Sequence record: OK283619.1
Source of the DNA: Escherichia phage LPEK22
DNA length: 64,000 nucleotides
Direction: 5' to 3' (one strand)
In this document: piece by piece, positions 4,772-33,300 of the stretch
Numbering within the stretch: the stretch's first letter is position 1
How the letters are laid out: each line of letters starts with the position of its first letter
Notes under the pieces: model-generated
What the model saw: only the letters and a program-made list of their open reading frames with translations
Told to the model about the DNA's origin: nothing
Databases searched by the model: none
Program-made: the position numbers and the translations under genes

Positions 4772-4800
4772 ATACTCCATAATATTGGGGGAAATTAGTG

Positions 4801-6300
4801 ATGTCTGAGATCCAAATAGTCAAAGTGAACGAAGTTAGAATGCGGATCCTTACCGAGGATTATATCCGTGAAGAACTCAACGATTACTTCAAATTTGAAG
4901 ATCCTAATTTCCAACCGAATCCGTTCAGTAAATGGGACGGCGTAGTGCGGCTGTTCACAAAGAGTTCTGGGCTTATCGACATCGGCCTGTTATTTGAGGT
5001 GTTCAAATTCTGTAAGATGAACGGTTACACCATCAAATTAGATCCGACCTTAAAATATATTCAAGATATTCCGGATGAAGAAATTCATGCGTTCATCGAT
5101 ACATTGAATGCGGTGTACCGAGACGAAAACAAACAATATCAAAAAGCGATTGTCCGCGATTATCAATTTGATTCTGTTGCCACAGCAATACGCCAAAGCA
5201 GATGTGTCCTCGAAGCTGCCACGAGTGCTGGCAAATCCTTTATTTTGTACATCATGGCGCGTTACTACAGGCAACGCAGAGATGCCCTCGAAAGTAATCT
5301 GAGGACGTTAATTGTTGTACCATCCATTCATTTGGTGACTCAGTTGTATGACAACTTCGAAGAATATAGCCACGGGACAGAATGGAAGCCATTGATGAAC
5401 GTCCAGACAATATACGAAGGGGCAACGAAAGAGATTTTCAAACCCATAGTTATTTCAACTTGGCAAGGTATCCAGAACCAACCCAAAGAGTGGTTCCATC
5501 AATTTGGAGATATCGTCGTCGACGAAGTACATACATCAAAATCAGATAAATTGTCTTACATCTTGAACAACTGTATTAACGCTGATCAACGTTTGGGAGT
5601 AACCGGAACCCTGGCGAATACAAAGGTCGCAGGGTTACAAGTCGTTGCTCACTTTGGCGCATATCATAAAATTATTACAGCGCGCGATTTAATCGATCTA
5701 GGATATGCGGTAGACATCAATGTTAATATGATTGAAGTCATACATCCTATGGCAGACTGTATTGAAATGCACGGTGCTGAGTATCAAAAGGAAATAGAAT
5801 TCCTCATTGCTAACGAACGCCGCAATGAATTGATAGCCCGAATGGCTCTATCTTTGAAAGGGAACGTCGCAGTCATGTTCGAACGTATCGATGCACACAT
5901 GATGTTGGTTTATGAAATGCTATCGGCAGTCAAGAAAAACGTATTCGTCATCAACGGGGAAGTCAAGACAGAAGTTCGTAAACAGATTCAGGCTGCTATG
6001 GAAGAAGGGGAAGATATAACACTGTTGGCATCATATGGTACTATGCAACAGGGCGTATCTATCAAAAAACTCCATCATCTGATATTGGCCCATCCCAGCA
6101 AATCTTATATCCGTGTTATACAGACATTGGGGCGTTTGATGCGCCAGCATTCCTCTAAGGATGTTGCGCGAATCTGGGACCTGGTAGACAACCTGCGTTA
6201 CAACGGTTCCTACAACCATGCTCTCAGGCATTCTCATGAGAGATATAAATTTTATCTTATGGAGCGCCACCCTGTTAAAATGAAAAAAGTGGCGCTCTAA
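4801..6300 (+). CDS. uvsW: UvsW-like SF2 DNA/RNA helicase
   Basis: Walker A TSAGKS, DEVH box, VASYGTMQQGVS..LHHLILAH; collinear recalled similarity to T4 UvsW. Confidence 0.9.
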   Translation: MSEIQIVKVNEVRMRILTEDYIREELNDYFKFEDPNFQPNPFSKWDGVVRLFTKSSGLIDIGLLFEVFKFCKMNGYTIKLDPTLKYIQDIPDEEIHAFIDTLNAVYRDENKQYQKAIVRDYQFDSVATAIRQSRCVLEAATSAGKSFILYIMARYYRQRRDALESNLRTLIVVPSIHLVTQLYDNFEEYSHGTEWKPLMNVQTIYEGATKEIFKPIVISTWQGIQNQPKEWFHQFGDIVVDEVHTSKSDKLSYILNNCINADQRLGVTGTLANTKVAGLQVVAHFGAYHKIITARDLIDLGYAVDINVNMIEVIHPMADCIEMHGAEYQKEIEFLIANERRNELIARMALSLKGNVAVMFERIDAHMMLVYEMLSAVKKNVFVINGEVKTEVRKQIQAAMEEGEDITLLASYGTMQQGVSIKKLHHLILAHPSKSYIRVIQTLGRLMRQHSSKDVARIWDLVDNLRYNGSYNHALRHSHERYKFYLMERHPVKMKKVAL

Positions 6301-10572: not shown

Positions 10573-10600
10573 CAGAGGCTATAATGGCCTCTGTTTTTGT
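10573..10600 (+). terminator. rho-independent terminator
   Basis: ACAGAGGC...GCCTCTGT hairpin followed by TTTTGT. Confidence 0.6.
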
Positions 10601-10617
10601 ATTCTAGAGAGGATACC

Positions 10618-11823: not shown

Positions 11824-12227
11824 AACCCGTAAAACATCATCGTTCATGGAAAGTATGCCCAGCGTGTTCAAGTCGGGCGACAAAATTGTTCAACATGAAT
11901 ACTGGGAAATATGAATGTCAAGTCTGTCGGCATCATTATGATGATCCAAAATGTCGATCTTTGGTCGACAAAATTTATAAATTTATCATTTTGTTGGGTA
12001 ATTGCGAGCAATATCAATATACCGTGTATGGTGATAGTTTAAGCCAGATCGATAAACATCTTTTGAAATTGATTTCGAAATACGATAAAGAAAGCAAGCG
12101 CCCTGTGCGCGTTGTGAGTACTCCAAAGGGTTATCCAAAGGGAACAAGATCAGTTACGGTTGTTGGTTACACCAGTTATGACGGGAAACGGTTCAGAAGT
12201 ATTCGAGTAAACATGATTCCCGTTTAA
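11820..12227 (+). CDS. zinc-ribbon protein (135 aa)
   Basis: CPAC...CQVC pair near N-terminus; ATGA start/stop overlap with upstream gene. Confidence 0.5.
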   Translation: MKPVKHHRSWKVCPACSSRATKLFNMNTGKYECQVCRHHYDDPKCRSLVDKIYKFIILLGNCEQYQYTVYGDSLSQIDKHLLKLISKYDKESKRPVRVVSTPKGYPKGTRSVTVVGYTSYDGKRFRSIRVNMIPV

Positions 12228-12228
12228 A

Positions 12229-12257
12229 CTTTTCAATAAATCTTTTCAGCGTATATT
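12229..12257 (+). promoter_or_regulatory. early-promoter-like element: -35 CTTTTC, 17 bp, -10 TATATT
   Basis: Preceded by TTCAATAA motif; followed by leader hairpin and conserved initiation motif before ATG 12324. Confidence 0.4.
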
Positions 12258-12323
12258 GACCTCACTTTAACGACGCGCCCCGATAAGGGCGCTCACTTTG
12301 AACTGAAACAGGAAGACTATACC

Positions 12324-14342: not shown

Positions 14343-14379
14343 TTGATTTGACCACAAATTCGTAATAAGGAACAATGAA

Positions 14380-14751
14380 ATGTTTGATCAAGCAACCCGT
14401 TTAAAACTGCGTTTCAACTCTAACAAAGGTCTGCTGTCTGTTGAGCAGGTTTGGGATCTGAACCTGAATGCCCTAAACGAACTGGCGAAAGACCTCAGCC
14501 GTCAGGTGAAGGAAGCCGCCAGCGATGAAGAAGATTTCATCGGCGTGAAAAGCGCAGTCGACTCTCAGTTACAACTGCGTTTCGATATCGTGAAAGCGAT
14601 CATCGGTGTCAAACTGAAAGAACGTGACGAAAGCGCAACCGCCGCCGAACGTAAAGCGAACAACCAGGTTATTCTGGAACTGATCCAGCGTAAGAAACAG
14701 CAGGAGCTTGAAGGTAAATCTGTTGAAGAACTGGAAGCGCTGTTGAAATAA
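14380..14751 (+). CDS. hypothetical coiled-coil protein (123 aa)
   Basis: ORF with RBS AAGGAA; followed by terminator 14773-14799. Confidence 0.5.
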   Translation: MFDQATRLKLRFNSNKGLLSVEQVWDLNLNALNELAKDLSRQVKEAASDEEDFIGVKSAVDSQLQLRFDIVKAIIGVKLKERDESATAAERKANNQVILELIQRKKQQELEGKSVEELEALLK

Positions 14752-14772
14752 TCTGTCGGCTCCGGCCTGAGC

Positions 14773-14799
14773 AACCCCGCCTTGTGCGGGGTTTCTTTT
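14773..14799 (+). terminator. rho-independent terminator
   Basis: AACCCCGC-CTTGT-GCGGGGTT hairpin followed by TCTTTT. Confidence 0.65.
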
Positions 14800-14810
14800 G
14801 GAGAAATATT

Positions 14811-15047
14811 ATGAAACAAATTACTAAGACAGTACAAATCACCCAATATCAAACGGATGACGGCAGAGTGTTCGATACTCTTGGTCAGGCCGAACATTAT
14901 GAGAAGATGAAGTCCGGTATTCGCAAGGTATGCCCTTCTTGTGATGGCAAAGGTCGCGACTCTCCGTCTGGCGACGGGCGTGATATGACGACTTGTCATT
15001 ATTGTGGTGGTAAAGGCTGGGTAGAAAAGAAAGAGATATGGGGTTAA
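14811..15047 (+). CDS. DnaJ-type zinc-finger protein (78 aa)
   Basis: Two CxxCxGxG repeats (CPSCDGKG, CHYCGGKG); RBS GGAG. Confidence 0.5.
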   Translation: MKQITKTVQITQYQTDDGRVFDTLGQAEHYEKMKSGIRKVCPSCDGKGRDSPSGDGRDMTTCHYCGGKGWVEKKEIWG

Positions 15048-15457
15048 TGAAACCTGTCATCTGTGATTACTGCGGCCTTCCTGCCAAATACGTCGGGGGT
15101 GATGTTGTATACCCCCACCGCCCTGAACTCCGCAATCTGAAGTTCTGGGTGTGCACTCCATGTGACGCCCGAGTCGGTTGCCATAAACATGGTGATGGAA
15201 AGACCCCTATGGGAAGGATGGCGAATGCCGCTCTCCGTGCTGCTAAGCAGGAAGCTCATAGGTCGTTTGACCCTATCTGGAAAAGTGGGCAGAGGAGCAG
15301 GAGTGATGCTTACAGCTGGCTGGCTCATAATCTGGGGATCAAGAAGCGCGATTGCCATATCGGCTTGTTCGATATCGACACGTGCCGTAAAGTAATATCT
15401 GTGTGTGACCAACTAGAGGTGTCAAACGATGTCAAAGGAAATACAAGAATCTTTTGA
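15047..15457 (+). CDS. zinc-finger protein (136 aa)
   Basis: CDYCG...CTPCDARVGCHKH cysteine cluster; TAATG overlap with upstream gene. Confidence 0.5.
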   Translation: MKPVICDYCGLPAKYVGGDVVYPHRPELRNLKFWVCTPCDARVGCHKHGDGKTPMGRMANAALRAAKQEAHRSFDPIWKSGQRSRSDAYSWLAHNLGIKKRDCHIGLFDIDTCRKVISVCDQLEVSNDVKGNTRIF

Positions 15458-15680
15458 AAAGTTATCTCAGGTAATGACCGATTGCAACCGCCGAAATTAT
15501 TGCGATGAAGCGTATACGCAATTGAAAACCGTCGTCGAATCTGAGTTGAATAACCTTTCAACTTTTAAAGATATTCAGACCGAAGTGCTATATCTGTCGG
15601 ATGAAGATTTAAGGCGTTGTCCCCGCAAGATTTACCAATTACTGGATCGTTTGGTGAAAGTGGGGGTGGATAATGGGTAA
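15429..15680 (+). CDS. hypothetical protein (83 aa)
   Basis: ORF with RBS GAGGTG. Confidence 0.4.
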   Translation: MSKEIQESFEKLSQVMTDCNRRNYCDEAYTQLKTVVESELNNLSTFKDIQTEVLYLSDEDLRRCPRKIYQLLDRLVKVGVDNG

Positions 15681-16398
15681 TCGTGAAGGGATTAAACTCA
15701 CTCCAGAACTTCTAAAGTCCCACATCGCCGAAGTGATTTATGAAGACCGTGAAGTCGGTGGTCATCGTGTCATTACATGCCACTTCAAGATGGACAATGG
15801 CTTCGTCGTCTGGGGGAAGAATAGTTCAACTTCTATCGACCCAGCCAACTTTGATGAAGAGTTGGGTAAGAAACTGGCCTATGAAAAGACCTTCTCCCAG
15901 CTGTGGGAACTGGAAGCATATCGCGCGATGGTAGAAAAGCAGATCATCGATGTGTCCGTCAAAGATGCTAAGATCAACATTGATGAATATGTGTCAGAAA
16001 GGGAAGCGATACATGAGATGGGTGGTTCTGAATTCCTTAAGGGTAAAGGACAATCTGTCGTGTTTCGTCATCCCAAGGATCCAAGTCGGGGATTTCGAGT
16101 TGAATTTGTTCGCACCGATAACGAACGTTATAACGAACGACGTAATGGTGAAGCAAGATCTTTGGTGGAAGCGTATCTTCGCTCGTTCATGACTTCTGAA
16201 GAACTAAATTCTGAACTTGTTTTGCGTTTGGCGAAAACGTGTAATGCTGCTTCAGGGGATTATCCGTGGTGTGACCTGTCAGAAGACAAACGCCAAGCAG
16301 CTTGTGATCGTGTTAAGAAATTCTTGTTAGATCCGAAAGCCGAACCTGATGATTCCGTGGGGGCGCTGTATAGAGCCATCGTGGTGTCATACTTGTGA
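15673..16398 (+). CDS. hypothetical protein (241 aa)
   Basis: ORF overlapping upstream stop; N-terminal CHFKMDNGFVVWGK region recalls a phage Gp49-like domain (weak). Confidence 0.5.
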   Translation: MGNREGIKLTPELLKSHIAEVIYEDREVGGHRVITCHFKMDNGFVVWGKNSSTSIDPANFDEELGKKLAYEKTFSQLWELEAYRAMVEKQIIDVSVKDAKINIDEYVSEREAIHEMGGSEFLKGKGQSVVFRHPKDPSRGFRVEFVRTDNERYNERRNGEARSLVEAYLRSFMTSEELNSELVLRLAKTCNAASGDYPWCDLSEDKRQAACDRVKKFLLDPKAEPDDSVGALYRAIVVSYL

Positions 16399-16858: not shown

Positions 16859-17029
16859 ATGACCAAACCATTTTTGCGTTCAGGAGTTGACTCTCTTGAC
16901 TCACAGTTTAAACCCAGCGAAGTTTTAATCCAACAGATTGAAACTAATCGCGAATTCATAGAACACATGCTGGCGAAGCCGGAAGGTGAAGCCGTCCATA
17001 CCACTAAAGAAGGTAATAACGATGATTGA
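16859..17029 (+). CDS. small ORF (56 aa), below ORF-track size cutoff
   Basis: ATG 2 nt after upstream stop with RBS AAAGGGAA; stop overlaps the vWA gene start. Confidence 0.3.
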   Translation: MTKPFLRSGVDSLDSQFKPSEVLIQQIETNREFIEHMLAKPEGEAVHTTKEGNNDD

Positions 17030-19238
17030 ATCATTAACATTTAAGAATGCGGTTGCGACCGTCGCGCCGTCTAACCATGTAATCGTTGTGGATATCTCCG
17101 GTTCCATGTATCGTTCACTTCCAGAAGTCCGTAAGCATCTGAAGGAGAACCTGCCTTCCCTGGTGAAACCGGAAGATACTGTGAGCATCCTTTACTTTTC
17201 ATCTCGCGGTGATTTCGGAACGGTATTTGCCGGACGTCAGATTAACAGTGCAACTGACCTCAGTGAGATCAATAATCTAATTGACCGTTTCCTGAAGCCT
17301 TCTGGTTGTACTGGTTTTGTTGAGCCGCTGAAACTGGCTGCGGAAACTGCCATTAGCCTGAATAAACCTGGTTATGTTAACAACCTGGCATTCATGACCG
17401 ACGGGTATGACAACTGCTGGCGTTCTAATGAAATCCTGGATGCCGCTGAAGTACTGCCCAAAGCGTTTGATAACATTACCTTCATCGAATACGGTTGGTA
17501 TTGTAATCGCGAACTGCTGGGGCTAATGGCAGAACGTTCTGGTGCGACCCACGTATTCGCCGAAGGACAGAATGAATATCAGACCGAATTGGAAAACGTG
17601 CTGAAAACTTCTTCACCGAAAGTTGTAGTCGATGTTCCTCTGGTTTATACCCATGCCATTTATGTTGAAAATGGCGTGGCGACTGTTTTAGCTGTGCATC
17701 CTGATGAAGAGCACCCTATTGGCCACGTCAGCATCCCTGAAAGCGTTTCTCAGCTGTGGGTTGTAAACCCCAACATGATCGACCAGCTGGATAATCTGGC
17801 AGACATCCAAGCGGCATACGTGCTGGCATTTTACGGCGTGTATACCATGGACGCCGATCTGGTCTGGGCCGCGCTGAAGAAGACGGGTGACGTCCGCTTC
17901 ATCAAACAGTACAGCAACTGTTTCACCAAGCAGGACTATTCCAACATCAAAGTCGATCTGACTCAGGCTATCGTAGACGAATCTCTGCGAGGAGTTGATG
18001 GCATCGATTATAATATGGTTCCGGCTGAAGACGCCACCACCATTGTTGATGTTCTGACGTATCTGGCTGAAGCAGATGTCTCTATCGTCACCAAGCATCC
18101 ACTATTCTCTTACAAGAGCATTGGGCGCGGTACTGTACAGAAAGTTGATGACACCGAAGACAAGTTGGCCGAAGAGATTGCGAATGCGACTTCTAAAGAA
18201 GAGCGTAAAGCCCTGGCGCTCAAACTGGCCGAGCACGAAGATTGGACCCCCGAATTCAATCCGGTTGATGATAAAGGGATTGTCCCGATCAGCAATTTGG
18301 TCTACAATTCAGAACGTCCTAACATCAGTGTGCAGACAGTTCAACACGGAACGGTTGTTGTGCCTGAGTTTGTACAGAAGAAATATGAACTTCCTGAAGA
18401 GCTGGGGACCTGGCGTTATCGCAATTACACCATTGTCAAGGATGGTATCATCAACCTGAAAACAATGCCTATCACTGCAGATTCTCCGATTGTTCGGGCT
18501 AAGGTGGCACAGGATTTGACTGCCATGGGTGTTCATGTGTTTGGTGGACCGGAAGTCTTCATTGTAAATCTGGAAAGTGTCCCAATGGTTAACCGCGCCA
18601 TGACAAAGAATATCAGTGCTGCTGAATTCTTTGCAGACAATGTGCGCCGTGAAGCATTGAAGGCAAAACAGAAAGTTCTGAAATTCTACCGTGATGAACT
18701 GGTTGGTAAAGGCAACGCTACTGGTCTGGCTTCAAAATATGGCAAAGAAGCAGCTGATTTCCTGTCAGCAAACGGAATTCGCGACTATGGATTTTCACCG
18801 AAGACTTCTTCTGTAGAATCAACCGATGTCTATATGAGTCGTGAATTGAATGTGAAAATCAAAGGCGCATCTTCACTGCCGAGCATCGCGTCTGTTATCA
18901 AAAAACAGACGGACGGTAAAAAACTGAATGTCGCTGATCAGCTGATCGCTAATGCCCTGGCTGAATACAATGCATTTGTTAAATCGCCGATGATCACCAG
19001 CGTACCGGAAGAGACTCAGAAAAAGCTGATTGAAAGCTGGATCGGAGACGCAGCAAAAGCGGCCATTAACGAAGTCCGCGCCCTGAACAAAACGCTGTCC
19101 AAGGTAGTTTATGGGATTGTTGCAGGCCATGGTTGGTTTACCGACCTGGATTTGGAAGAATCCACTATGGATGTGGAAGTTGATGGGGTGAAATACACCG
19201 TCACTGCCGAACTGGCTGAAAAAGAAGTCAAAATCTAA
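17022..19238 (+). CDS. von Willebrand factor A (vWA) domain protein (738 aa)
   Basis: MIDAS motif DISGSMY near N-terminus and vWA-like topology; start moved to internal ATG (MIESLTF). Confidence 0.75.
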   Translation: MIESLTFKNAVATVAPSNHVIVVDISGSMYRSLPEVRKHLKENLPSLVKPEDTVSILYFSSRGDFGTVFAGRQINSATDLSEINNLIDRFLKPSGCTGFVEPLKLAAETAISLNKPGYVNNLAFMTDGYDNCWRSNEILDAAEVLPKAFDNITFIEYGWYCNRELLGLMAERSGATHVFAEGQNEYQTELENVLKTSSPKVVVDVPLVYTHAIYVENGVATVLAVHPDEEHPIGHVSIPESVSQLWVVNPNMIDQLDNLADIQAAYVLAFYGVYTMDADLVWAALKKTGDVRFIKQYSNCFTKQDYSNIKVDLTQAIVDESLRGVDGIDYNMVPAEDATTIVDVLTYLAEADVSIVTKHPLFSYKSIGRGTVQKVDDTEDKLAEEIANATSKEERKALALKLAEHEDWTPEFNPVDDKGIVPISNLVYNSERPNISVQTVQHGTVVVPEFVQKKYELPEELGTWRYRNYTIVKDGIINLKTMPITADSPIVRAKVAQDLTAMGVHVFGGPEVFIVNLESVPMVNRAMTKNISAAEFFADNVRREALKAKQKVLKFYRDELVGKGNATGLASKYGKEAADFLSANGIRDYGFSPKTSSVESTDVYMSRELNVKIKGASSLPSIASVIKKQTDGKKLNVADQLIANALAEYNAFVKSPMITSVPEETQKKLIESWIGDAAKAAINEVRALNKTLSKVVYGIVAGHGWFTDLDLEESTMDVEVDGVKYTVTAELAEKEVKI

Positions 19239-24509: not shown

Positions 24510-24715
24510 TCGGGTTAATCCGTTATCTGTTCATATTCGTAATTTCAACATTCATTTTATTTTTCTTTTTCAAATACTTGAAAGAGACTAAAATCTACCG
24601 AAGTAAACGTTGGCGTAAACGGGTGAGGGTAACTTTCCTGCTGCTGATTTCTTCGGTTACAATAACCGCACTCACATTGGGTGCATATATCTACATTTTT
24701 GAAGGGGTACATTGA
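24506..24715 (+). CDS. small membrane protein, two predicted TM helices (69 aa)
   Basis: ATGA overlap with upstream gene; hydrophobic LIRYLFIFVISTFILFFFF and FLLLISSVTITALTLGAYIYIF. Confidence 0.45.
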   Translation: MIGLIRYLFIFVISTFILFFFFKYLKETKIYRSKRWRKRVRVTFLLLISSVTITALTLGAYIYIFEGVH

Positions 24716-25506
24716 TGTTCAAGAAATTGGTGTTTGGTGCAATTATGGTTCTGGCTGCAAGTCTACTTTCTGGTTGTGGTGGCGTTATCGATGAAGGTAA
24801 TGTCGGCGTTCGCACCCAATGGGGTGAAGTAGACATGAACCCTGTAACAGCGGGGATCTACACCAGCTTTGTTTCAAGCGTGGATGTTTACACGACCAAA
24901 GAAGCCGTTGTGAGTCTGACGAAAATGACGCCAAAGGCCAAAGACAACCTGACCTTGGAAGATCTGGATGTGGACGTTTATTACACACCGAACGTCGCGA
25001 AGGTTCCTTGGTTCCATACCAAATTTGCAGGTCAGAGCGCTGAACTCGGTGACGGCACGATAGCGGTGGGATTCAACCTGGTTAAAACCGCCGCAGCATC
25101 CTCAACGATGGACGCCGTTTCCTCTTTGGATTCTATGACAATTCACACCCAACGGGCTGAGTTAGAAAAGATGATCAAGGAACGCACCCAGCAGCAATTG
25201 GAAACTGCTGCGCCTGGCATGTTCACAATCACACGTGTGTTGGTGAAAAAGGCGCTGACAGATCCTTCGATTGAGCAATCTATCCGTGATAATGTCATGG
25301 CCGACAAACGTTTGGATACAGCAAGAAAGAACGTTGAAATTCGAGACCAAGAAGCCAGGGCGAATCAGAAACTGACGACATCTCTGACACCTGAATATTT
25401 ACAACACGAATATAACATGGTGTTGCAATCTTGCGCCAACAGCGGGAAATGTACTCTGATTGTTGATGGTTCAGGCTCAAGTAAAATGCTAAACGTCGGC
25501 AAATAA
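24712..25506 (+). CDS. SPFH/band-7 (prohibitin-like) domain lipoprotein
   Basis: Lipoprotein signal with lipobox LLSGC; GNVGVRTQWGEV...VDVYYTP resembles SPFH domain. Confidence 0.6.
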   Translation: MMFKKLVFGAIMVLAASLLSGCGGVIDEGNVGVRTQWGEVDMNPVTAGIYTSFVSSVDVYTTKEAVVSLTKMTPKAKDNLTLEDLDVDVYYTPNVAKVPWFHTKFAGQSAELGDGTIAVGFNLVKTAAASSTMDAVSSLDSMTIHTQRAELEKMIKERTQQQLETAAPGMFTITRVLVKKALTDPSIEQSIRDNVMADKRLDTARKNVEIRDQEARANQKLTTSLTPEYLQHEYNMVLQSCANSGKCTLIVDGSGSSKMLNVGK

Positions 25507-25589
25507 ACGCTTTATTCAATAGTATTTGTTAGGTAAGCTGTAGTCCTCTTGTAGTGAAACATCGTAAACAACTAACTGGAGTAATCCGA

Positions 25590-25868
25590 ATGAACCGTAC
25601 TGATTTTATCGCTCACATCGCTCAAACCCAGGGTATGACCAAAGGCGAAGCTGAGAAAATCGTTGCATCTTTTATCAATGGCGTGAAAACTGCAGTCGCG
25701 GCTGGCCAATCTGTCCAATTCGTAGGCTTCGGCGCGTTCGAAGTTAAACATCAGGAAGCGCGCACTGGCCGCAACCCGCTGAACGGACAACAGATCCAGA
25801 TCGAAGCGAAAAATGTAGTTAAATTCAAAGTCGGTGAAGGTCTGAAAGCTGCTGCCAACGGCCAGTAA
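25590..25868 (+). CDS. HU/IHF-family histone-like DNA-binding protein
   Basis: FVGFGAFEVKHQEARTGRNPLNGQQIQIEAKNVVKFKVGEGLK matches the HU beta-arm signature; start moved to ATG with GGAG RBS. Confidence 0.85.
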   Translation: MNRTDFIAHIAQTQGMTKGEAEKIVASFINGVKTAVAAGQSVQFVGFGAFEVKHQEARTGRNPLNGQQIQIEAKNVVKFKVGEGLKAAANGQ

Positions 25869-25928
25869 TCACACCAGGCGTCGGCTCAGCGCATGTCTGC
25901 AGTGCAGCGGCGCAAGGCTAAAAGGAGA

Positions 25929-25955
25929 AGCCGAGGTTAATGCCTCGGCTTTTTC
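25929..25955 (+). terminator. rho-independent terminator after HU gene
   Basis: AGCCGAGG-TTAAT-GCCTCGGCT hairpin followed by TTTTT. Confidence 0.7.
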
Positions 25956-26003
25956 GTTGTTGGGATTCGGGTAAACTATAACAGAATCCAAAGGAGGAAC
26001 AAC

Positions 26004-27725
26004 GTGACAGCATTTAATCAACACCGAAAGGCGATTGACGCCATAGGCCGTAAGGTTCCTGTGGAAGAAATACAACGCCTTACCAAAGATGAATTCCCAT
26101 ATGACAAAGCGAACCCAGGCCAGATGGAATGCATCGTCGAAGCCATAGATGCGCTTATCAACAAAAAGGTTAAACATGTCATCATTGAAGCTCCGACAGG
26201 TGTCGGTAAATCTTTGATTGGCACTACCATTCATAAAGTGATTCGCCATCTAGTTTTACAGGCTGATCCTTATGGGCAATTTCGCACTTCTATCAGCACC
26301 CCGACCAAAGGTCTGCAAGATCAGTATGCTGCTGAAAAGGCGGTGGCGATAGACATCCTAAAAGGCAAGAAGAACTATCGTTGCCACGTACATCCAGATG
26401 TGTATTACAATGCTGTCCAATGCCGTATAGCATGCCGTGACGGGCATTGTAGCAAACGCCGCTGTCCTTATGTACAGGCGCGTAATTTGTGGACGGATAT
26501 TTCATCATTGCGTTGTACTAATGCTGCCATGATGATCGAAATGTGTACAACCATCTGCATGAAGCCCGAAAACCGTTCCGATATGCTGATCCTTGACGAG
26601 TGCCATAAAATGCCCTCTACGCTCCTAGAGCACACGATCATGGAATACAATACAAAGGCCGTGGAGGGGCTGCGTTCTATCCCTGATGGCAAGGAGATCG
26701 TCTCTACCATTGGTGATATCGTAGAACGCACCAAGGACTATGTCCTGGGCAAGTTATATTCCTTGTCTGGTGAACTACATTCAATGTTTGAAGACCTCCA
26801 TCTCAAAGTAGAAAATTTGTTGGAAGTTCTTGAAGAATTGGTCGAAGATGATCGCTTGAGTGAAAGCCAAGTGATGAAACTCGCCGACATTATAGATGTC
26901 TTGCATAACTTGAGTGATTATTGCGGTATTATGTCTCAGACAAAGGCCAGCACCTTTATCGTACAGGAAAAGGGAGATGACTTTATTCGGTTTAAACCCG
27001 TTATGCCTTCTGATGTAAGTGAATTCGGGTTATTCCGAAAAGCTGATTATCACGTTCATATGTCAGCAACGATCTGTGGTATAGATTCGTATGCTCGTTC
27101 ATTGGGTATTCGACAGGGGGATTATCATTCCATTCAGATCGGCAACCCTATCCCGATTGAAAACAGAAAAGTCAACTATATGCCCATAGTGAAGATGACT
27201 AACAATATGGGTGACTATGAAATGAAAAGGTTGACGGAATATATTGATGAAATAATCGCGTTCCACCCAGGTCAGTCCGGTATTATCCATACAGTGAGTT
27301 ATGATCGCGCGTTGGCAATACAAAAATTCAGCAAATATCAGAATTTTATCCATGTTCCGCGCACCCGAAAGGCGTTGATGGATATTATGGAAAATGCTTT
27401 TAGAACAAAGTCCCCATGCGTCATTGCCAGTCCTGCCATGGAAGAAGGTTATGATTTCAAAGGGGATTACAGCCGTTTCCAAATACTGATCAAAGTCCCT
27501 TATGATTATCTGGGCGATCCACTGATAGCACATATCAATTCAGTGGATCCGTCGGCATATTTCCGCAATGCAGTACTGCGCATTGTTCAAATGTGTGGGC
27601 GTTCGGTCAGGGGTGTTGATGACTGGGCTGCGACATACATCATTGATTCATCTTTTGAATCTCTTATGATGCGCAACCCAGAATTCTTCCCAACCTGGTT
27701 CACCGATGCAGTGTTTGAGGTTTAA
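26004..27725 (+). CDS. DinG/XPD (Rad3)-family helicase
   Basis: Walker A APTGVGKS, DECH box, Cys-rich segment between them typical of the Fe-S domain; GTG start with AAGGAGG RBS. Confidence 0.75.
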   Translation: MTAFNQHRKAIDAIGRKVPVEEIQRLTKDEFPYDKANPGQMECIVEAIDALINKKVKHVIIEAPTGVGKSLIGTTIHKVIRHLVLQADPYGQFRTSISTPTKGLQDQYAAEKAVAIDILKGKKNYRCHVHPDVYYNAVQCRIACRDGHCSKRRCPYVQARNLWTDISSLRCTNAAMMIEMCTTICMKPENRSDMLILDECHKMPSTLLEHTIMEYNTKAVEGLRSIPDGKEIVSTIGDIVERTKDYVLGKLYSLSGELHSMFEDLHLKVENLLEVLEELVEDDRLSESQVMKLADIIDVLHNLSDYCGIMSQTKASTFIVQEKGDDFIRFKPVMPSDVSEFGLFRKADYHVHMSATICGIDSYARSLGIRQGDYHSIQIGNPIPIENRKVNYMPIVKMTNNMGDYEMKRLTEYIDEIIAFHPGQSGIIHTVSYDRALAIQKFSKYQNFIHVPRTRKALMDIMENAFRTKSPCVIASPAMEEGYDFKGDYSRFQILIKVPYDYLGDPLIAHINSVDPSAYFRNAVLRIVQMCGRSVRGVDDWAATYIIDSSFESLMMRNPEFFPTWFTDAVFEV

Positions 27726-28489
27726 TAACCCGCAATAAACGATAAATGGCACTTGATATTTGGTTCAAGTGTCGTTATCGTGATAATCATATTGTCCACA
27801 TCTTGGCTGAAAGATATATTTGCGATCGGTTTGGTTTGAACATGATTATACAGGCTATAAATCAGATCTTCACCACGATAACCGATTTTGCCATCAGTGT
27901 CCTGCCAATGACCGAGGGTAGACTCTCGAGCGTGTACTCGGAATTCGACCATATGAAACAATGCTTTTGGGATTGTCTTCAGTATGCTGGTCCCAACAAC
28001 CGGAATATCAATAGAAGAGTCGTTGGAGTTTCCTTCATAAACAGATTCCCAACCAAATATTGGATCACCTCCTGCCACAGGAGTTCTTTTCCAGTATTGG
28101 AATTCTGGGTTGCCCGAAGCGTTCTTTTGTAGGAGGATTACTTCACCGCCTTCAAAATTGGAAGTGTCTATATCGTCCCTTGCTAATAAATCTGCCGGAG
28201 AACCAATAAATTTCCAAGTTTCGCGATCTAAAATAGACTTATAATAATCGGTGAATACGTTGCTGTCGTTAGCTGCATTGATTGCGTCTTTAAGACCTTC
28301 ACCTGTGACCATCTCATTAAGTTTTAGCCACATGTTTTTGACAGCTGACGCAGCTGCGACTTGACCTTCAGTCCCACCCGCCGTGTAGTCATAAATGATG
28401 TCCAGCTTTTGTATGGAATCATTTATAGACAAGAGCAAACGCTCAATTTCTGGGGCGGTCAGACTGAAACGATATGCGCGTTCTGACAT
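27722..28489 (-). CDS. hypothetical protein (255 aa), opposite strand
   Basis: Minus-strand ORF with GAGGAA RBS, convergent with the helicase gene. Confidence 0.5.
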   Translation of the reverse strand: MSERAYRFSLTAPEIERLLLSINDSIQKLDIIYDYTAGGTEGQVAAASAVKNMWLKLNEMVTGEGLKDAINAANDSNVFTDYYKSILDRETWKFIGSPADLLARDDIDTSNFEGGEVILLQKNASGNPEFQYWKRTPVAGGDPIFGWESVYEGNSNDSSIDIPVVGTSILKTIPKALFHMVEFRVHARESTLGHWQDTDGKIGYRGEDLIYSLYNHVQTKPIANISFSQDVDNMIITITTLEPNIKCHLSFIAGY

Positions 28490-28531
28490 GATTCGTTCCT
28501 CATCGATAAAACCAGTTTGGGATACTTATAC

Positions 28532-29059
28532 ATGATTGAAATATACACTGACGGGGCATCATCCCCTCAGAAGACACGAGCCGCTGGTTGGGCATTTGCC
28601 ATCAGTCCAATCACTGGAGAGCAATGGAAAGTGTTTTATGGGTATTTACCCCCGCCGTCAACGAACAATATAGCTGAGTTACTCGGGGTTATAAACGCAA
28701 TGAAGATCCTATGGAAATTCTCTAATTGCGGTGAACGCTGCATTCCCCCAGCCCGCATCATATCCGACAGCCAATATGTTATCAATAGCGTTTTGGAGTG
28801 GCGTCGTAAATGGGAATATGAAGGAATGCCGCCTAAGAACACAGAACTTCTGCTCGAGTTGTTCGATTATTATGACAAAGTTTGTTCAATTTGTGAACTT
28901 GAATTAAAATGGGTGAAAGGTCATGCAGGAACGATGGGCAACGAAATTGCGGATCAGTGGAGCGTTAGAGCCAAAGAAGATAGTTCAATGGTTCTTGAAA
29001 ATAACCGTTTCTCGGTCAAGAAAGTCGTTGGTTCTTTCAATGAATTCATTGGTATTTGA
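28532..29059 (+). CDS. rnhA: ribonuclease HI
   Basis: IYTDGAS...NNIAELLGVINAM...ISDSQYV...WVKGHAGTMGNEIADQ match the RNase H1 DEDD motifs; track start is TTG, ATG chosen. Confidence 0.85.
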   Translation: MIEIYTDGASSPQKTRAAGWAFAISPITGEQWKVFYGYLPPPSTNNIAELLGVINAMKILWKFSNCGERCIPPARIISDSQYVINSVLEWRRKWEYEGMPPKNTELLLELFDYYDKVCSICELELKWVKGHAGTMGNEIADQWSVRAKEDSSMVLENNRFSVKKVVGSFNEFIGI

Positions 29060-29070
29060 GGATTATCACG

Positions 29071-29862
29071 ATGGGTATGAATTTTGTAGACAGGGGTGAT
29101 AACGTCACCAAATATTTCACAGACGAAGATAATGACCGTGTTGTTGGAATATTGAGAGATTGGATTCCGGCTCGCAAAAAGGCTTTGGCCGAAGGAACAC
29201 CCCTACCAAGAATCCCCAATTATGTGGCCATGAATGTTCAGATGATTATTAAGAACATGAGTATGCGCTACAACTATCGTGATTATCCATACCGCGAAGA
29301 CATGGTCAGTGAGGCCGTTGTCAACATCCTTCGTTACCTCCATACATTTGACGTCAGTCATATCGGCAAGAAAGGAAAAATCAATTTCTTCTCTTGGGTA
29401 ACGATGTGCGCCGATCGTTCATTCGCCAAGAAACTCACCAGTGAAGAAGAACACAATTATATCAAGTTGCGTTCATTTGAAGAAGCAGGTGGTTTCGCTG
29501 CATTATCAGATGACCCAGACTTCCAGCAACAGACATTCGTAGACAGCACTGGTATAACAATGGACTTCCGTGAGCGTATCGGAAATTTTGAAACTAAGAA
29601 AGAAGCACAGCGCGAAAAGGAACGCCAAAAGCAAATCGCCATCAAAGAAGAGGAAAAGAATAAGAAAATTCCTCGCGGTATACTTCAATGTCTCACAAAG
29701 AGTGAAAATACCATTACCGCCGACGCCGAAGATAATTCAGACTATGACTTCGGCTCTACTCAATTCAATCTGGAAGACGAAATATGTTCTATGGAACCAG
29801 ATTGGGAAGAAGCAAAGAAACGAGCATTAGAACGGGAGCAACAAAATAATGGCGATTGCTAA
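29071..29862 (+). CDS. 55: late-transcription sigma factor (gp55-like) with C-terminal extension
   Basis: Central block RYNYRDY...DMVSEAVVNILRYLHTFD...NFFSWVTMCADRSFAKKL parallels T4 gp55; 264 aa vs 185 aa. Confidence 0.65.
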   Translation: MGMNFVDRGDNVTKYFTDEDNDRVVGILRDWIPARKKALAEGTPLPRIPNYVAMNVQMIIKNMSMRYNYRDYPYREDMVSEAVVNILRYLHTFDVSHIGKKGKINFFSWVTMCADRSFAKKLTSEEEHNYIKLRSFEEAGGFAALSDDPDFQQQTFVDSTGITMDFRERIGNFETKKEAQREKERQKQIAIKEEEKNKKIPRGILQCLTKSENTITADAEDNSDYDFGSTQFNLEDEICSMEPDWEEAKKRALEREQQNNGDC

Positions 29863-30964
29863 AATAGGCGATTTACATATCGGGAGCCGTAATGGTTCCC
29901 GTTACGTTCGAGAATTCATAAAGAATTATCTCATCAATTATTTTATTCCAGAATTGGTTGACGCCGATATTAAAGAAGTGTGGCAATTTGGTGATACGTT
30001 TGATGTTCGCAAATTCATGTATGGTCGCGATAAAGATTGGTTGAAAGATGAATTGACGCCAGCGCTGCGCAAAGCAGGTATTAAATGGAATGGCATCGTC
30101 GGCAACCATGATATCACGTTAGAAGAGTCCAATCGCATTAACTGGCCTTCTTATCTTAATGAATTGGCACCGGATGTTTATCATTATTACAGCGAACCAA
30201 CTGAAGTAATGATTGAAGGTGTCAAGACCCTCCTACTGCCGTGGATTAACAAAGAGAACTATGATGCGTCCATTAAAGCGATACAAGATACAGACGCCAA
30301 GTACTGTTTTGCGCATCTGGAGTTGGCAGGGTTCAAAATGTATCAGTCCTCTATATGTGATAAAGGTCAGATCGACGTGGCGCTCCTTTCGAAATTCGAG
30401 CGCGTGGATACCGGACATTTCCATACCCGTTCGATGGAAGGTAACATTCAGTATATTGGGACTCCTTATCACCTTACCTGGGAAGACCACAAAGACGGGA
30501 CGAACCGAGGATTCTATGTAGACGACATGAATGGCGGGGAATTGTTTATCCCCAACAACGAACAACAAACGTTGTTCCGGTTCGTGGAATACGACTACAC
30601 GCAAATGTCTTCTGACACCGAAGGTAATTGGATCGACCCCGATTGGTTAAACAATGTTTTGGGTATTGAAGGGCAAATCGTTAAGGTGATTGTACAGAAC
30701 CGTGACAATGCCAAGCATTATGAAAAGTTCTGTGACGCATTGAAGCGCTGTAAATGCATCGATTACAACTTCATCGATCGGACGATTACTGTTGCTTCCG
30801 AGAAGGTAGAAGTCACTGAAGAGATGGTGGCGACTGATGCTGTGGAAGTCCTGAAGAAAGATATCCGCGCCGCCAATAATATCCAGCGCCCTGAAAATGT
30901 TTGCAAATTAGCAGAACAATTCTATAATGCTGCCCAACAACGCCTGAACACATTGGATGCATAA
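29849..30964 (+). CDS. 47: recombination endonuclease subunit (gp47, Mre11/SbcD-like)
   Basis: Phosphoesterase motifs GDLHIG, GDTFD, GNHD, GHFH; collinear with T4 gp47. Confidence 0.9.
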   Translation: MAIAKIGDLHIGSRNGSRYVREFIKNYLINYFIPELVDADIKEVWQFGDTFDVRKFMYGRDKDWLKDELTPALRKAGIKWNGIVGNHDITLEESNRINWPSYLNELAPDVYHYYSEPTEVMIEGVKTLLLPWINKENYDASIKAIQDTDAKYCFAHLELAGFKMYQSSICDKGQIDVALLSKFERVDTGHFHTRSMEGNIQYIGTPYHLTWEDHKDGTNRGFYVDDMNGGELFIPNNEQQTLFRFVEYDYTQMSSDTEGNWIDPDWLNNVLGIEGQIVKVIVQNRDNAKHYEKFCDALKRCKCIDYNFIDRTITVASEKVEVTEEMVATDAVEVLKKDIRAANNIQRPENVCKLAEQFYNAAQQRLNTLDA

Positions 30965-30966
30965 TA

Positions 30967-33300
30967 ATGAACAATGTAGACCTATTATCAAAATTTGGTT
31001 CGCTGTTGAAAGAAGCGGACACTCCTGTTTCTGTTGAAGCACCATTTGAAATCCGTGGGGAAATTACCCACAAACTGACTTTCCATCGCGGTCGCGCTAA
31101 AAACTTTCGTTCTATCGGTAATGAATTCATGGAAATTGATTACCAACGCAACCCTGCAACCTTGGTTACATCCGATGACAATGGCGCTGGTAAATCCACC
31201 ATGCTTGTCTGGCTGCTGTTCTTCGTTCTGTATAATGACACATATAGCAAGAAAGAAAAGAAAGCCGGATTAGTCAATTCCCAAAACAAAAAGGAATGCG
31301 TGGGTGAAGTTGAGTTCTCCACTCGAGGAAGTGAATGGAAAGTCCGTCGTGGTATCAAACCTGATTTCGTAGAAGTCTATCAGATGGTAGACGGTGAGTG
31401 GAAGCAGGTCGTGAATGATGCGGCCAAAGCCGACATGAACAAATATATTGTGAACCTGATTGGCGTAGACCAGAAGATGTTTGAGAACTCCCTGGTTCTG
31501 GGCAAAGAGAAGTTCATCCCATTCACGGAAATGTACACTGCCGACCGTCGCGCTATGGTAGAGACAATCTGGGATTTGGGGTTCTTCAGTCTGATGAATG
31601 AAGATGTAAAAGCATCTATCAAGACAGTAACGAATGAACTCACGACGGTCACCAATGATTACGCCTTTCATGATGTAAATTTAAAAGGCCAGCAATCGCA
31701 GTTGGAACAGATCAATAATTCCAATGCGATGATCCAGCAACAATCTGCTGATATCCTTGTCCAAGAGAAGGAACGTCTGAATAGCCTGAATTCAGATATC
31801 AGCGCAGTGCAGGAACAACTGACAGAGTCCCGTGCTCAAGACTCTAAATTGGAATCAGAATTATCAGAAGTCCGTAATCGCCTGAATGCCGAAATGAAAG
31901 GGGATATCGATGCCATCAATGAAGAGTATGCGGCCAAAATCCAAGCAGTTCAGGATGAAGCCGATACCAAGGCTGAAGATTATGAACGCATAGAAGTATC
32001 CGACGGCGAAAGGTCGTTACAAGAAATCCGCGAAAGAATGGCGGTGGTCACAGAACGCAAAAACGAACTAGTCGGTCAGAGGAATGCTAATCTCGACGAA
32101 CTGAATAAAGCGTTGGCGCGGCGTCAACAGGGAGAGAACTTCCGTATCAAATTCGTAACAGAAATGGAAGGACATGAATCTGCCATCAAACGTTTCCACG
32201 ATATGGGCACTTGCCCTACGTGTACGCAATTAGTGTCGGACGATACCAAATCACGCATTGAAAGTCAATATTATCCACAAATCAGTGAACTGACTGACAA
32301 GATTCTTCAGGTTGATACAGCCCTAGAAGAAGTGAATTCCCTGATTGAGAATTACAATGTCAGAGATTCAGAATTATCTTCTCAGATTTCGGTTATTGAC
32401 AAAGAACTGGATGCTTTGCGCAATGAAATCCGAGAAGCGGAATCGGCGATCGCTACATTAAAACGCGACATCCAAGGATTCTATGATGTCGCTGCTGTTG
32501 AGAAAACATCTTTACAGCGGGAACAACAGTCCAAAATTAACGACGTCCTCAAGGCCGTAGACACCCGTTACGAAGATATCACGACGTCAATCCGTCAAGC
32601 GCGTGAGCAGCTCTCTAAGAGTATCAACGACACGGCTGATAAACTCACCAGCCTGAAATCACGCCGTGCCCCTCTAGAGGCATCCATTGCCGATTTAGAG
32701 CGTAAATTGGCGGTTAAGCCGACACCAACTGAAGCCCTGGAAGGAGAGATCGCTCGCATCACGGCATTAATGGAAGATCTGAATGCGCGGCGCGTAGAGT
32801 TGGATGAGAAATTGCAAGACCTGAACCATCTTCTGTTCTTCCTAAAAGATGATCAGACCAAGGCTCGAATTATCAGCCTGTATTTGCCTTTCCTCAATAG
32901 TAAAATAAACGAGTATCTTGAAGCACTCAATATGTTCTTGGATATTGCTGTTGATGATACATTTGAAATCACCATGAGCGCTGCAGGTCGTAAAGGGCAA
33001 AGCATATTCTCCCTGTCTACAGGACAACGCAGCCGACTCAATCTGGCTGTGACATTAGCCCTACGGGACGTGGCCAACCTCAAGGCGTCGGTGCAATGTA
33101 ACCTGTTTGTGTTAGATGAAATCCTTGAGAACATGAGCGAGCGTGGCGTACAAGAATCGGTTGAGATGCTGAAACATAAATTTGGTGGGAACAATCTATT
33201 TGTCATCAGTCAGCGTGAGCAGGAGTTCCAAGAATATTTCCAACATAACATTCGTTATGGTCTGCGTAATGGCATGACCGAAGTGATTAAGAAGGATTGA
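30967..33300 (+). CDS. 46: recombination ATPase subunit (gp46, Rad50/SbcC-like)
   Basis: Walker A DDNGAGKST, long coiled-coil middle, C-terminal signature/Walker B (LFVLDE); adjacent to gp47. Confidence 0.88.
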   Translation: MNNVDLLSKFGSLLKEADTPVSVEAPFEIRGEITHKLTFHRGRAKNFRSIGNEFMEIDYQRNPATLVTSDDNGAGKSTMLVWLLFFVLYNDTYSKKEKKAGLVNSQNKKECVGEVEFSTRGSEWKVRRGIKPDFVEVYQMVDGEWKQVVNDAAKADMNKYIVNLIGVDQKMFENSLVLGKEKFIPFTEMYTADRRAMVETIWDLGFFSLMNEDVKASIKTVTNELTTVTNDYAFHDVNLKGQQSQLEQINNSNAMIQQQSADILVQEKERLNSLNSDISAVQEQLTESRAQDSKLESELSEVRNRLNAEMKGDIDAINEEYAAKIQAVQDEADTKAEDYERIEVSDGERSLQEIRERMAVVTERKNELVGQRNANLDELNKALARRQQGENFRIKFVTEMEGHESAIKRFHDMGTCPTCTQLVSDDTKSRIESQYYPQISELTDKILQVDTALEEVNSLIENYNVRDSELSSQISVIDKELDALRNEIREAESAIATLKRDIQGFYDVAAVEKTSLQREQQSKINDVLKAVDTRYEDITTSIRQAREQLSKSINDTADKLTSLKSRRAPLEASIADLERKLAVKPTPTEALEGEIARITALMEDLNARRVELDEKLQDLNHLLFFLKDDQTKARIISLYLPFLNSKINEYLEALNMFLDIAVDDTFEITMSAAGRKGQSIFSLSTGQRSRLNLAVTLALRDVANLKASVQCNLFVLDEILENMSERGVQESVEMLKHKFGGNNLFVISQREQEFQEYFQHNIRYGLRNGMTEVIKKD

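Follow-up and report, generated by a model that had tools for sequence, protein, structure and literature searches.

The RNase H of bacteriophage T4 (rnh) is a flap endonuclease (FEN)/5′–3′ exonuclease whose fold and mechanism are wholly different from those of RNase HI. FENs are structure-specific 5′ nucleases, whereas RNase HI is an endonuclease of RNA:DNA hybrids that is unable to remove the junction ribonucleotide; the role proposed to be common to the two in phages is the removal of Okazaki primers. T4 also encodes the 5′–3′ accessory helicase Dda, a member of superfamily (SF) 1B, and UvsW, a branch-unwinding helicase that unwinds origin R-loops. T4 is not known to encode an XPD-like helicase. 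Here, we analyzed a 64,000-nucleotide stretch of Escherichia phage LPEK22 (sequence record OK283619.1; hereafter, the window), in which genes for a predicted iron-sulfur (FeS) helicase of the XPD/DinG family (26004..27725, + strand) and for a bacterial-type RNase HI (28532..29059, + strand) flank a gene on the opposite strand (27722..28489). The three open reading frames (ORFs) lie exactly where an earlier reading of the DNA letters, the original prediction, had placed them, but the central claim of that reading, that helicase and RNase H form a pair for R-loop processing, is not borne out by our comparisons. These point, as the most probable explanation, to two independent and ordinary accessory genes of a T4-like replication and recombination machinery, neighbors only through a family-specific gene order.

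The closest described systems are very close. The window is not a T4 relative of unspecified kind; it belongs to a Kuttervirus (Ackermannviridae), and all three genes are annotated in CBA120, SFP10 and other members of this group. Positions 25500-29900 match SFP10, CBA120, PhaxI, Det7 and others over the full length with 99.0–99.4% identity, and CBA120 matches the whole window with 90–99.7% identity. In CBA120, the counterparts are orf124 (putative ATP-dependent helicase), orf123 (conserved hypothetical protein) and orf121 (putative ribonuclease H); in the Dickeya phage LIMEstone1, they are ORF094 (putative ATP-dependent DNA helicase), ORF093 (confirmed structural protein of unknown function) and ORF092 (putative ribonuclease HI). 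The trios of both phages have the order and orientation seen in the window and are 83–99% identical to it, with no substantive difference. Since these annotations date from 2011–2012 (PMC3184105; PMC3296691), the helicase, the RNase HI and the intervening gene have been known at annotation level from that time on, now in more than 200 phage records. The CBA120 genome paper makes no more than brief mention of ‘helicases’ and ‘orthologs of RNase H’ (PMC3184105), a 2024 paper on a Vi01-like phage lists ‘Ribonuclease’ and ‘putative ATP-dependent helicase’ among the gene products (PMC10892097), and a 2024 review of the Ackermannviridae mentions neither the helicase nor RNase HI (PMC11721090).

Comparison of gene neighborhoods indicates that the adjacency of helicase and RNase HI is lineage-specific synteny and not a conserved cassette. 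We examined 79 IMG/VR loci with a helicase homologue, 14 from Ackermannviridae and 65 from distant phages. RNase HI lies within 10 kb of the helicase in 15 of them, namely the 14 Ackermannviridae loci and Vibrio phage YC, which leaves 64 of the 65 distant loci without it. In the Delftia phage PhiW-14, the helicase (gene 70, at 61.7 kb) and an RNase HI 40% identical to ours (gene 224, at 143.3 kb) are ~80 kb apart. The PhiW-14 RNase HI gene sits directly upstream of gp55-gp47-gp46, and a homologue of the gene that separates helicase and RNase HI in the window, a T4 gp9-like gene described below, lies two genes before it. Sinorhizobium phage phiM9 has the helicase (29% identical) and no RNase HI; it encodes a T4-type FEN RNase H 1.8 kb downstream of the helicase. 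An endonuclease V-like gene lies between these two phiM9 genes. In the window, RNase HI is followed on the + strand by genes for the gp55 late sigma factor (29056-29862), gp47 (29849-30964) and gp46 (30967-33300), as assigned from PHROG 234, PHROG 100 and the CBA120 annotation. The full order of helicase, gp9-like gene (− strand), RNase HI, gp55, gp47 and gp46 is kept in Vibrio phages K364, whose helicase is 46% identical, and YC (34%), and the order RNase H-gp55-gp47-gp46 is shared by Vibrio phages K364 and YC and by PhiW-14. The arrangement in PhiW-14 thus shows that gp9-like gene, RNase HI, gp55, gp47 and gp46 form the deeply conserved block, which the helicase joined only in the Ackermannviridae-like lineage. 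The linkage within this block, found from Kuttervirus to YC and PhiW-14, is deeper than that between helicase and RNase HI.

Neighbor counts at the 65 distant loci, with 18 other replication, recombination and neighboring genes as control, gave the same picture. The genes found within 10 kb of the helicase (within 2 kb in brackets) were those for a gp41-like helicase at 7 loci (5), PhoH at 7 (2), UvsX at 6 (2), gp32 at 5 (1), FEN-type RNase H at 5 (3), DNA polymerase at 4 (0), gp46 at 4 (2) and RNase HI at 1 (1); gp47 was a neighbor at 3 of the 65. An RNase H of either type is therefore no commoner beside distant helicases than gp41, UvsX, PhoH or gp32; the surroundings of the helicase are a mixture of genes for replication and recombination. 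A FEN-type RNase H gene lies 0.1–1.8 kb from the helicase in phiM9 (12041-16321 of its locus) and in the uncultured contigs L041 (3051-5825) and L074 (7987-10501). We had considered that an RNase H of either type might be a specific neighbor of the helicase, with one type replacing the other in place by non-homologous exchange, and dropped this idea, the counts for gp41, UvsX, PhoH and gp32 being similar or higher. Clustering of all neighbors at the 65 loci found no family at more than 18, and the frequent families had no Pfam domain. A single anecdote from elsewhere is Yersinia jumbo phage fHe-Yen9-03, in which a type-1 RNase HI (g312; 228501-228854) adjoins a Dda-like helicase (g313), a further example, unrelated to the first, in which RNase HI and a helicase, here of the 5′–3′ Dda type, are neighbors.

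The contrast with T4 on which the original prediction built stands in part. Searches of the whole CBA120 genome with T4 rnh and Dda (tblastn) gave no match (best E values 1.1 and 0.45), and the CBA120 annotation names neither a FEN nor Dda. A profile built from seven FEN sequences (hmmsearch --max) found only the phiM9 gene; the best CBA120 ORF had an E value of 7.4, and PhiW-14 was negative. By tblastn, PhiW-14 likewise gave no match to T4 FEN or Dda, and phiM9 had no detectable Dda. PhiW-14 gene 174, annotated as ‘similar to T5 flap endonuclease’, was disregarded, as it has no Pfam domain and no CBA120 homologue. When T4 rnh was searched against all phage records, Salmonella was absent from the ten commonest host genera of the matches, despite ~165 records of Salmonella Kuttervirus. 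The FEN-type RNase H and Dda of T4 are thus undetected in CBA120. UvsW, however, is present: its gene (4798..6300, + strand; Pfam UvsW_N, ResIII and Helicase_C) lies in the window beside genes for UvsY and a PD-(D/E)XK nuclease. Its presence means that the R-loop helicase of T4 has not been swapped out.

Four genomes set side by side summarize the exchange. CBA120 and PhiW-14 both have the XPD-like helicase, RNase HI and UvsW, with neither FEN-type rnh nor Dda; phiM9 has the XPD-like helicase, FEN-type rnh and UvsW, with neither RNase HI nor Dda; T4 has FEN-type rnh, Dda and UvsW, with neither the XPD-like helicase nor RNase HI (for T4, rnh and dda were confirmed here, and the remainder is established knowledge). 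RNase HI and FEN-type rnh are therefore mutually exclusive in these four genomes, as are the XPD-like helicase and Dda. The SF1B enzyme Dda and an SF2 FeS helicase belong to unrelated superfamilies, and the slot they would share, judging from these gene inventories, is that of the non-replicative helicase of a T4-like replisome.

The helicase (573 aa) is assigned to the XPD/DinG (Rad3) family of SF2 by Pfam, PHROG, PDB and Foldseek comparisons and by its AlphaFold2 model. It is 99% identical to the annotated ‘DNA helicase’ of many Kuttervirus records, matches PHROG 2488 (‘DNA helicase’) end to end (9e-265), and has Pfam matches to Helicase_C_2 (PF13307; 7e-12, 46.1 bits against a cut-off of 25.3), ResIII and DEAD. 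We aligned the window protein with 26 homologues (27 sequences, 32–85% identity). In Walker A/motif I (EAPTGVGKSL, residues 62–71; 26187..26216, + strand), P64, T65, G66, G68, K69 and S70 are invariant. The same holds for D198, E199 and H201 of the motif II DECH box (ILDECHKM, residues 196–203; 26589..26612, + strand), a DExH sequence with C200 in between, and for Q529, G532, R533, R536 and G537 of motif VI, the arginine finger region (IVQMCGRSVRGV, residues 527–538; 27582..27617, + strand). Between motifs Ia and II, four cysteines, C127, C140, C149 and C154, are invariant, with the spacing C-x12-C-x8-C-x4-C, and C144 is variable. In a phmmer alignment, this stretch falls on residues 181–257 of the E. 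coli DinG chain, where DinG is itself Cys-rich. The four cysteines are candidate ligands in a predicted 4Fe-4S segment (residues 125–156; 26376..26471, + strand), and we infer that the helicase binds a 4Fe-4S cluster. A DinG/XPD-like Fe-S helicase with Walker A motif, DECH box and Cys-rich insert had been proposed from the start, with missing Fe-S cysteines as the result that would speak against it; the alignment has them in place, and this assignment is well supported.

The predicted structure agrees with the family assignment and with the four-domain fold of the family (HD1, FeS, Arch and HD2). The AlphaFold2 model (mean predicted local distance difference test score (pLDDT) 88.9; predicted template modeling score 0.88) has a helical insertion at approximately residues 215–315. 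Its top Foldseek matches in the PDB, all full-length with template modeling (TM) scores of 0.6–0.68, were E. coli DinG (6fws, 1e-26), F. magna DinG, archaeal, yeast and human XPD chains (1e-23 to 9e-21) and CasDinG; by sequence, too, the best PDB match was E. coli DinG. With E. coli DinG (6fwr/6fws) and with archaeal and eukaryotic XPD, the helicase shares the SF2 fold of two RecA-like motor domains, the Cys-rich FeS insertion between motifs Ia and II, the helical Arch-like insertion, and the Walker A, DExH and VI motifs. However, it is only 13–17% identical to these proteins, is shorter than DinG and nearer in size to archaeal XPD, and, unlike them, has its gene set among those of a phage replisome, without any SOS, HolC or TFIIH context. 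Its NCBIfam scores are 58.4 bits for DinG (cut-off 598), 53.1 for YoaA (680) and 27.1 for rad3 (246.95), set against equivalog or subfamily cut-offs. Scores so far below the cut-offs justify no orthology-based transfer of function, and the sequence places the helicase in the XPD/Rad3/DinG superfamily as a member of a separate viral clade, not as an orthologue of DinG, YoaA or Rad3. Membership of the sDinG class was rejected because sDinG proteins are without an FeS domain (PMC11981726).

Homologues of the helicase occur in Ackermannviridae, PhiW-14, rhizobiophages and the haloarchaeal myoviruses HF1/HRTV (where it is named ‘Rad3-related helicase’), as well as in Bacillus phage G, Ralstonia and Stenotrophomonas jumbo phages and Lak megaphages; among the close homologues is one that carries the label Methanosarcina sp. 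in a metagenome bin. A tie to thymidine hypermodification was considered and set aside as not specific: the helicase is found in ViI-like phages and PhiW-14, yet also in haloviruses, rhizobiophages, phage G and Lak phages.

Signals upstream of the helicase gene suggest that it opens its own transcription unit. A terminator-like hairpin, the GC-rich inverted repeat AAGCCGAGG...CCTCGGCTT followed by TTTTTCG (25928..25960, + strand), lies between an HU-like gene and the helicase, marking the latter as the likely start of a new unit, and the LIMEstone1 record has a factor-independent terminator annotated at the equivalent spot. A Shine-Dalgarno sequence, AAGGAGG (25991..25997, + strand), can be read 6 nt upstream of the GTG start codon. 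Promoter and terminator scans gave counts no different from those in shuffled sequence, and a literature search found no transcriptome covering these genes.

The second gene encodes a type-1 RNase HI of 175 aa from the ATG at 28532, the likelier start; with the in-frame TTG at 28517 as start, it would be 5 residues longer, and the LIMEstone1 coding sequence (CDS) has the same 528-nt length as the ATG-start ORF. No obvious Shine-Dalgarno sequence precedes it. The protein matches Pfam RNase_H (PF00075; 6e-24, 85.3 bits against a cut-off of 25.8) over profile positions 4–139 of 141, as well as PHROG 531. Among PDB entries, it is closest to the RNase HI enzymes of Shewanella and E. coli (~1e-9 to 1e-10), and BLASTP against the E. 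coli enzyme gave 29% identity over the whole domain (E 8e-13). Residues D7, E49, D79, H131 and D141 (ATG numbering) correspond to E. coli D10, E48, D70, H124 and D134. All five are invariant in eight phage homologues; the aligned set comprised four Ackermannviridae contigs, Vibrio phages K364 and YC, PhiW-14 and, in addition, E. coli. The D-E-D-H-D motif is thus intact, and the prediction of a type-1 RNase H with all catalytic motifs agrees with the sequence. In the BLASTP alignment, EWRRKWEYEG pairs with E. coli QWIHNWKKRG in the W-x-x-x-W region and is a candidate for the basic protrusion (handle) of the bacterial and eukaryotic HI subtype. Differences from the E. coli enzyme are an 8-residue insertion after the first helix and ~20 extra C-terminal residues. 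The NCBIfam equivalog score is 67.2 bits, below the cut-off of 160, and the protein is best classed as part of a divergent phage clade of type-1 RNase H. By tblastn, type-1 RNase H was found in 1332 of 50,697 phage records, mostly T5-like, ICP1 and jumbo phages.

Annotation of this gene varies among relatives. The CBA120 RNase H CDS in GenBank/RefSeq is only 142 aa long, starting at an internal GTG (window position 28631); it is 38 codons shorter than the TTG-start ORF and 33 shorter than the ATG-start ORF, and it omits the conserved IEIYTDGAS strand with the first catalytic Asp. The longer ORF is the one adopted in the LIMEstone1 and SFP10-type annotations, and the short CBA120 version is most likely an annotation error. 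The K364 annotation, for its part, is over-extended upstream and overlaps the gp9-like gene.

The gene between the two (255 aa; 27722..28489, − strand) indeed lies on the opposite strand, as first described, but is not of unknown kind: it is a late structural gene, probably for a T4 gp9-like baseplate protein, with a homologue found in virions. The protein matches PHROG 3833 (4e-165), a family restricted to Ackermannviridae-like phages, and a 28% identical homologue occupies the same position in Vibrio phage K364. Searching by sequence against PDB chains gave no match. The predicted model has a pLDDT of 64.8 overall, exceeding 90 in the C-terminal β-sandwich (residues 160–250); the low confidence of the N-terminal 160 residues is expected for a trimeric protein modeled as a monomer. 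Foldseek matched it to T4 gp9 (1qex_A, 2e-8) and to chain 9f4a_LA (1.4e-7), the gp9-position chain in the baseplate structure of Klebsiella phage KP1, with TM scores of ~0.3 on a weak model; the matches that follow are N-terminal domains of tailspikes. T4 gp9, the socket of the long tail fibers (1qex), is 15% identical and has 288 aa against 255 here, and the Ackermannviridae carry tailspike complexes rather than long fibers. In LIMEstone1, the homologue ORF093 was confirmed as a virion protein of 28.3 kDa by mass spectrometry, with 8 peptides and 41% coverage (PMC3296691).

The gp9-like gene has a strong ribosome-binding site, GAGGAA, and ~36 nt upstream of it a T4-type late-promoter-like element, recognized by its motif (TATAAGTA; 28523..28530, − strand). 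Two further structural genes on the − strand (53161 and 57964) are preceded by TATAAATA at a comparable distance, and the LIMEstone1 record has a ‘putative late promoter’ at the corresponding site before ORF093. The gene in between is thus most likely a late baseplate gene with its own putative late promoter, unrelated to the processing of RNA:DNA hybrids. The element TATAAGTA adjoins the RNase HI ATG (28532), so that one 40-nt spacer has to be traversed both by early or middle transcription running rightward and by late transcription running leftward. At the other end, the convergent helicase and gp9-like genes overlap by 4 nt at their 3′ ends (27722-27725), with no terminator between them.

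Based on these comparisons, the reading we consider probable is that RNase HI takes the place of FEN and the helicase that of Dda, the two genes being independent. The mutual exclusivity seen in the four genomes speaks for RNase HI as the primer and hybrid nuclease and for the FeS helicase in the Dda role; independence is seen in the wide spread of RNase HI through phages, mostly T5-like, ICP1 and jumbo ones, that do not figure among the helicase matches. RNase HI is predicted to degrade the RNA strand of RNA:DNA hybrids; its main job would most likely be lagging-strand primers and stray hybrids, with the junction ribonucleotide probably left to host Pol I. The helicase would be ATP-driven and presumably 5′–3′, as its family behaves, with the predicted 4Fe-4S cluster. 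From gene inventories and family behavior, it most likely fills the accessory role of Dda, which extends to freeing the path of forks from proteins, RNA polymerase and secondary structures and to aiding recombination-dependent replication. Several observations weigh against this reading. The primases of T4-type phages make very short primers, and RNase HI needs ~4 ribonucleotides, so primer removal may not be its main substrate. The replacement argument is drawn from four genomes, and the absence of Dda from tblastn and annotation only; because tblastn missed the divergent annotated FEN of phiM9, a very divergent Dda could have been missed too. The gene order is kept even in Vibrio phage YC, whose helicase is 34% identical, which is compatible with some selection for linkage. 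A literature search found no expression, biochemical or genetic study of the helicase or the RNase HI. Finally, both DinG and CasDinG unwind RNA:DNA hybrids, so that the helicase and RNase HI may share a substrate class (PMC11981726; PMC10450177).

This last point is the starting point for reading the two genes as a dedicated R-loop unit, in which the hybrid is unwound or exposed by one enzyme and its RNA degraded by the other, either for R-loop-primed origin firing or for clearing co-transcriptional or host-imposed R-loops. E. coli DinG unwinds R-loops (PMC11981726), CasDinG unwinds RNA/DNA hybrids (PMC10450177), and both enzyme families act on hybrids; the two genes share a strand and are separated by 0.8 kb, their order is kept in the Ackermannviridae, K364 (46% helicase identity) and YC (34%), and neither Dda nor FEN rnh was detected in the phage. 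We nevertheless regard such a unit as quite unlikely. In PhiW-14 there is no linkage, and RNase HI remains beside gp55-gp47-gp46; in phiM9 the helicase occurs without RNase HI; 64 of the 65 distant loci have no RNase HI within 10 kb, with no enrichment over other replication genes; RNase HI is common in phages outside the helicase match list; a probable late baseplate gene with a putative promoter of its own intervenes; and UvsW is available for R-loop unwinding. Nothing in the comparative data calls for cooperation of helicase and RNase HI on R-loops. We give similarly little credence to a broader version, in which, in one T4-like branch (Ackermannviridae, PhiW-14-like and related Vibrio phages), FeS helicase and RNase HI displaced Dda and FEN and act jointly at the fork, where RNA polymerase and R-loops would be stripped off by the helicase and the RNA destroyed by RNase HI. 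Such a system would amount to a non-T4 route of conflict resolution and primer removal, possibly tuned to thymidine-hypermodified DNA.

That the helicase serves mainly recombination and repair, with RNase HI as an unrelated neighbor, is unlikely. It would act with gp46/gp47 (Mre11/Rad50-like), UvsX and UvsY in resection and strand exchange, or process damage as XPD and DinG do. Its gene shares a block with those of gp47 and gp46, neighbors at distant loci include UvsX (6), gp46 (4) and gp47 (3), an endonuclease V-like gene stands between helicase and rnh in phiM9, and XPD, DinG and YoaA are repair helicases (PMC11981726; in part established knowledge). However, within 2 kb of the helicase at distant loci, a replicative helicase of the gp41 type is found most often (5 loci), an association that points to the replisome as much as to repair; the NCBIfam scores, well short of the equivalog cut-offs for DinG, YoaA and Rad3, justify no transfer of function by orthology; and no HolC/chi or TFIIH subunit is present as a partner. 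A role in counter-defense, with the helicase as decoy or competitor of the type IV CRISPR helicase CasDinG, or with RNase HI destroying crRNA:DNA hybrids in the R-loops of Cascade-like complexes, we hold to be highly improbable. In PADLOC, the helicase is matched best by a type-IV DinG model (PDLC01439, 2.5e-50) over nearly the full length, and CasDinG is among its fold matches. Yet PDLC01439 behaves as a generic DinG/Rad3 profile, and the specific Csf4 models scored only 8.5e-07 to 5e-05, which is near noise; we therefore rejected the PADLOC match as a specific identity and judged it a generic family match. The pFeS domain of CasDinG has one Cys or none (PMC11981726), whereas the helicase keeps four invariant Cys. 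Moreover, T4-like, haloarchaeal and jumbo phages carry members of the helicase family in the company of replication genes, and no cas or anti-CRISPR genes lie nearby.

Several other genes of the window were identified along the way. Immediately upstream of the helicase lies the gene for an HU/TF1-like DNA-binding protein (25554-25868; Pfam Bac_DNA_binding, 1e-29), which is present in 14 of 14 close loci and is called ‘TF1: transcription factor 1’ in one record. TF1 of phage SPO1 prefers DNA containing 5-hydroxymethyluracil (hmU), and the phage family of the window has hmU-derived hypermodified thymidine. A gene for a 5-hydroxymethyldeoxyuridine (5-hmdU) DNA kinase (10597-11823; Pfam HMUDK_hel, 1.7e-83), with MazG-like and other nucleotide-metabolism genes nearby, indicates that part of the thymidine-hypermodification pathway is encoded in the window. 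Located among the early genes are those for a 750-aa protein with a von Willebrand factor A domain (16986-19238), which was found in the LIMEstone1 virion (PMC3296691), and for an SPFH/Band-7 lipoprotein-like protein (24712-25506).

As a discovery, the locus matters little; its value is comparative. A helicase with a predicted FeS cluster belongs to the core genes of a phage family in therapeutic use, the Ackermannviridae. Among T4-like phages more broadly, FEN and RNase HI look like interchangeable options for the primer-removal nuclease, as do Dda and an XPD-like FeS enzyme for the accessory helicase.

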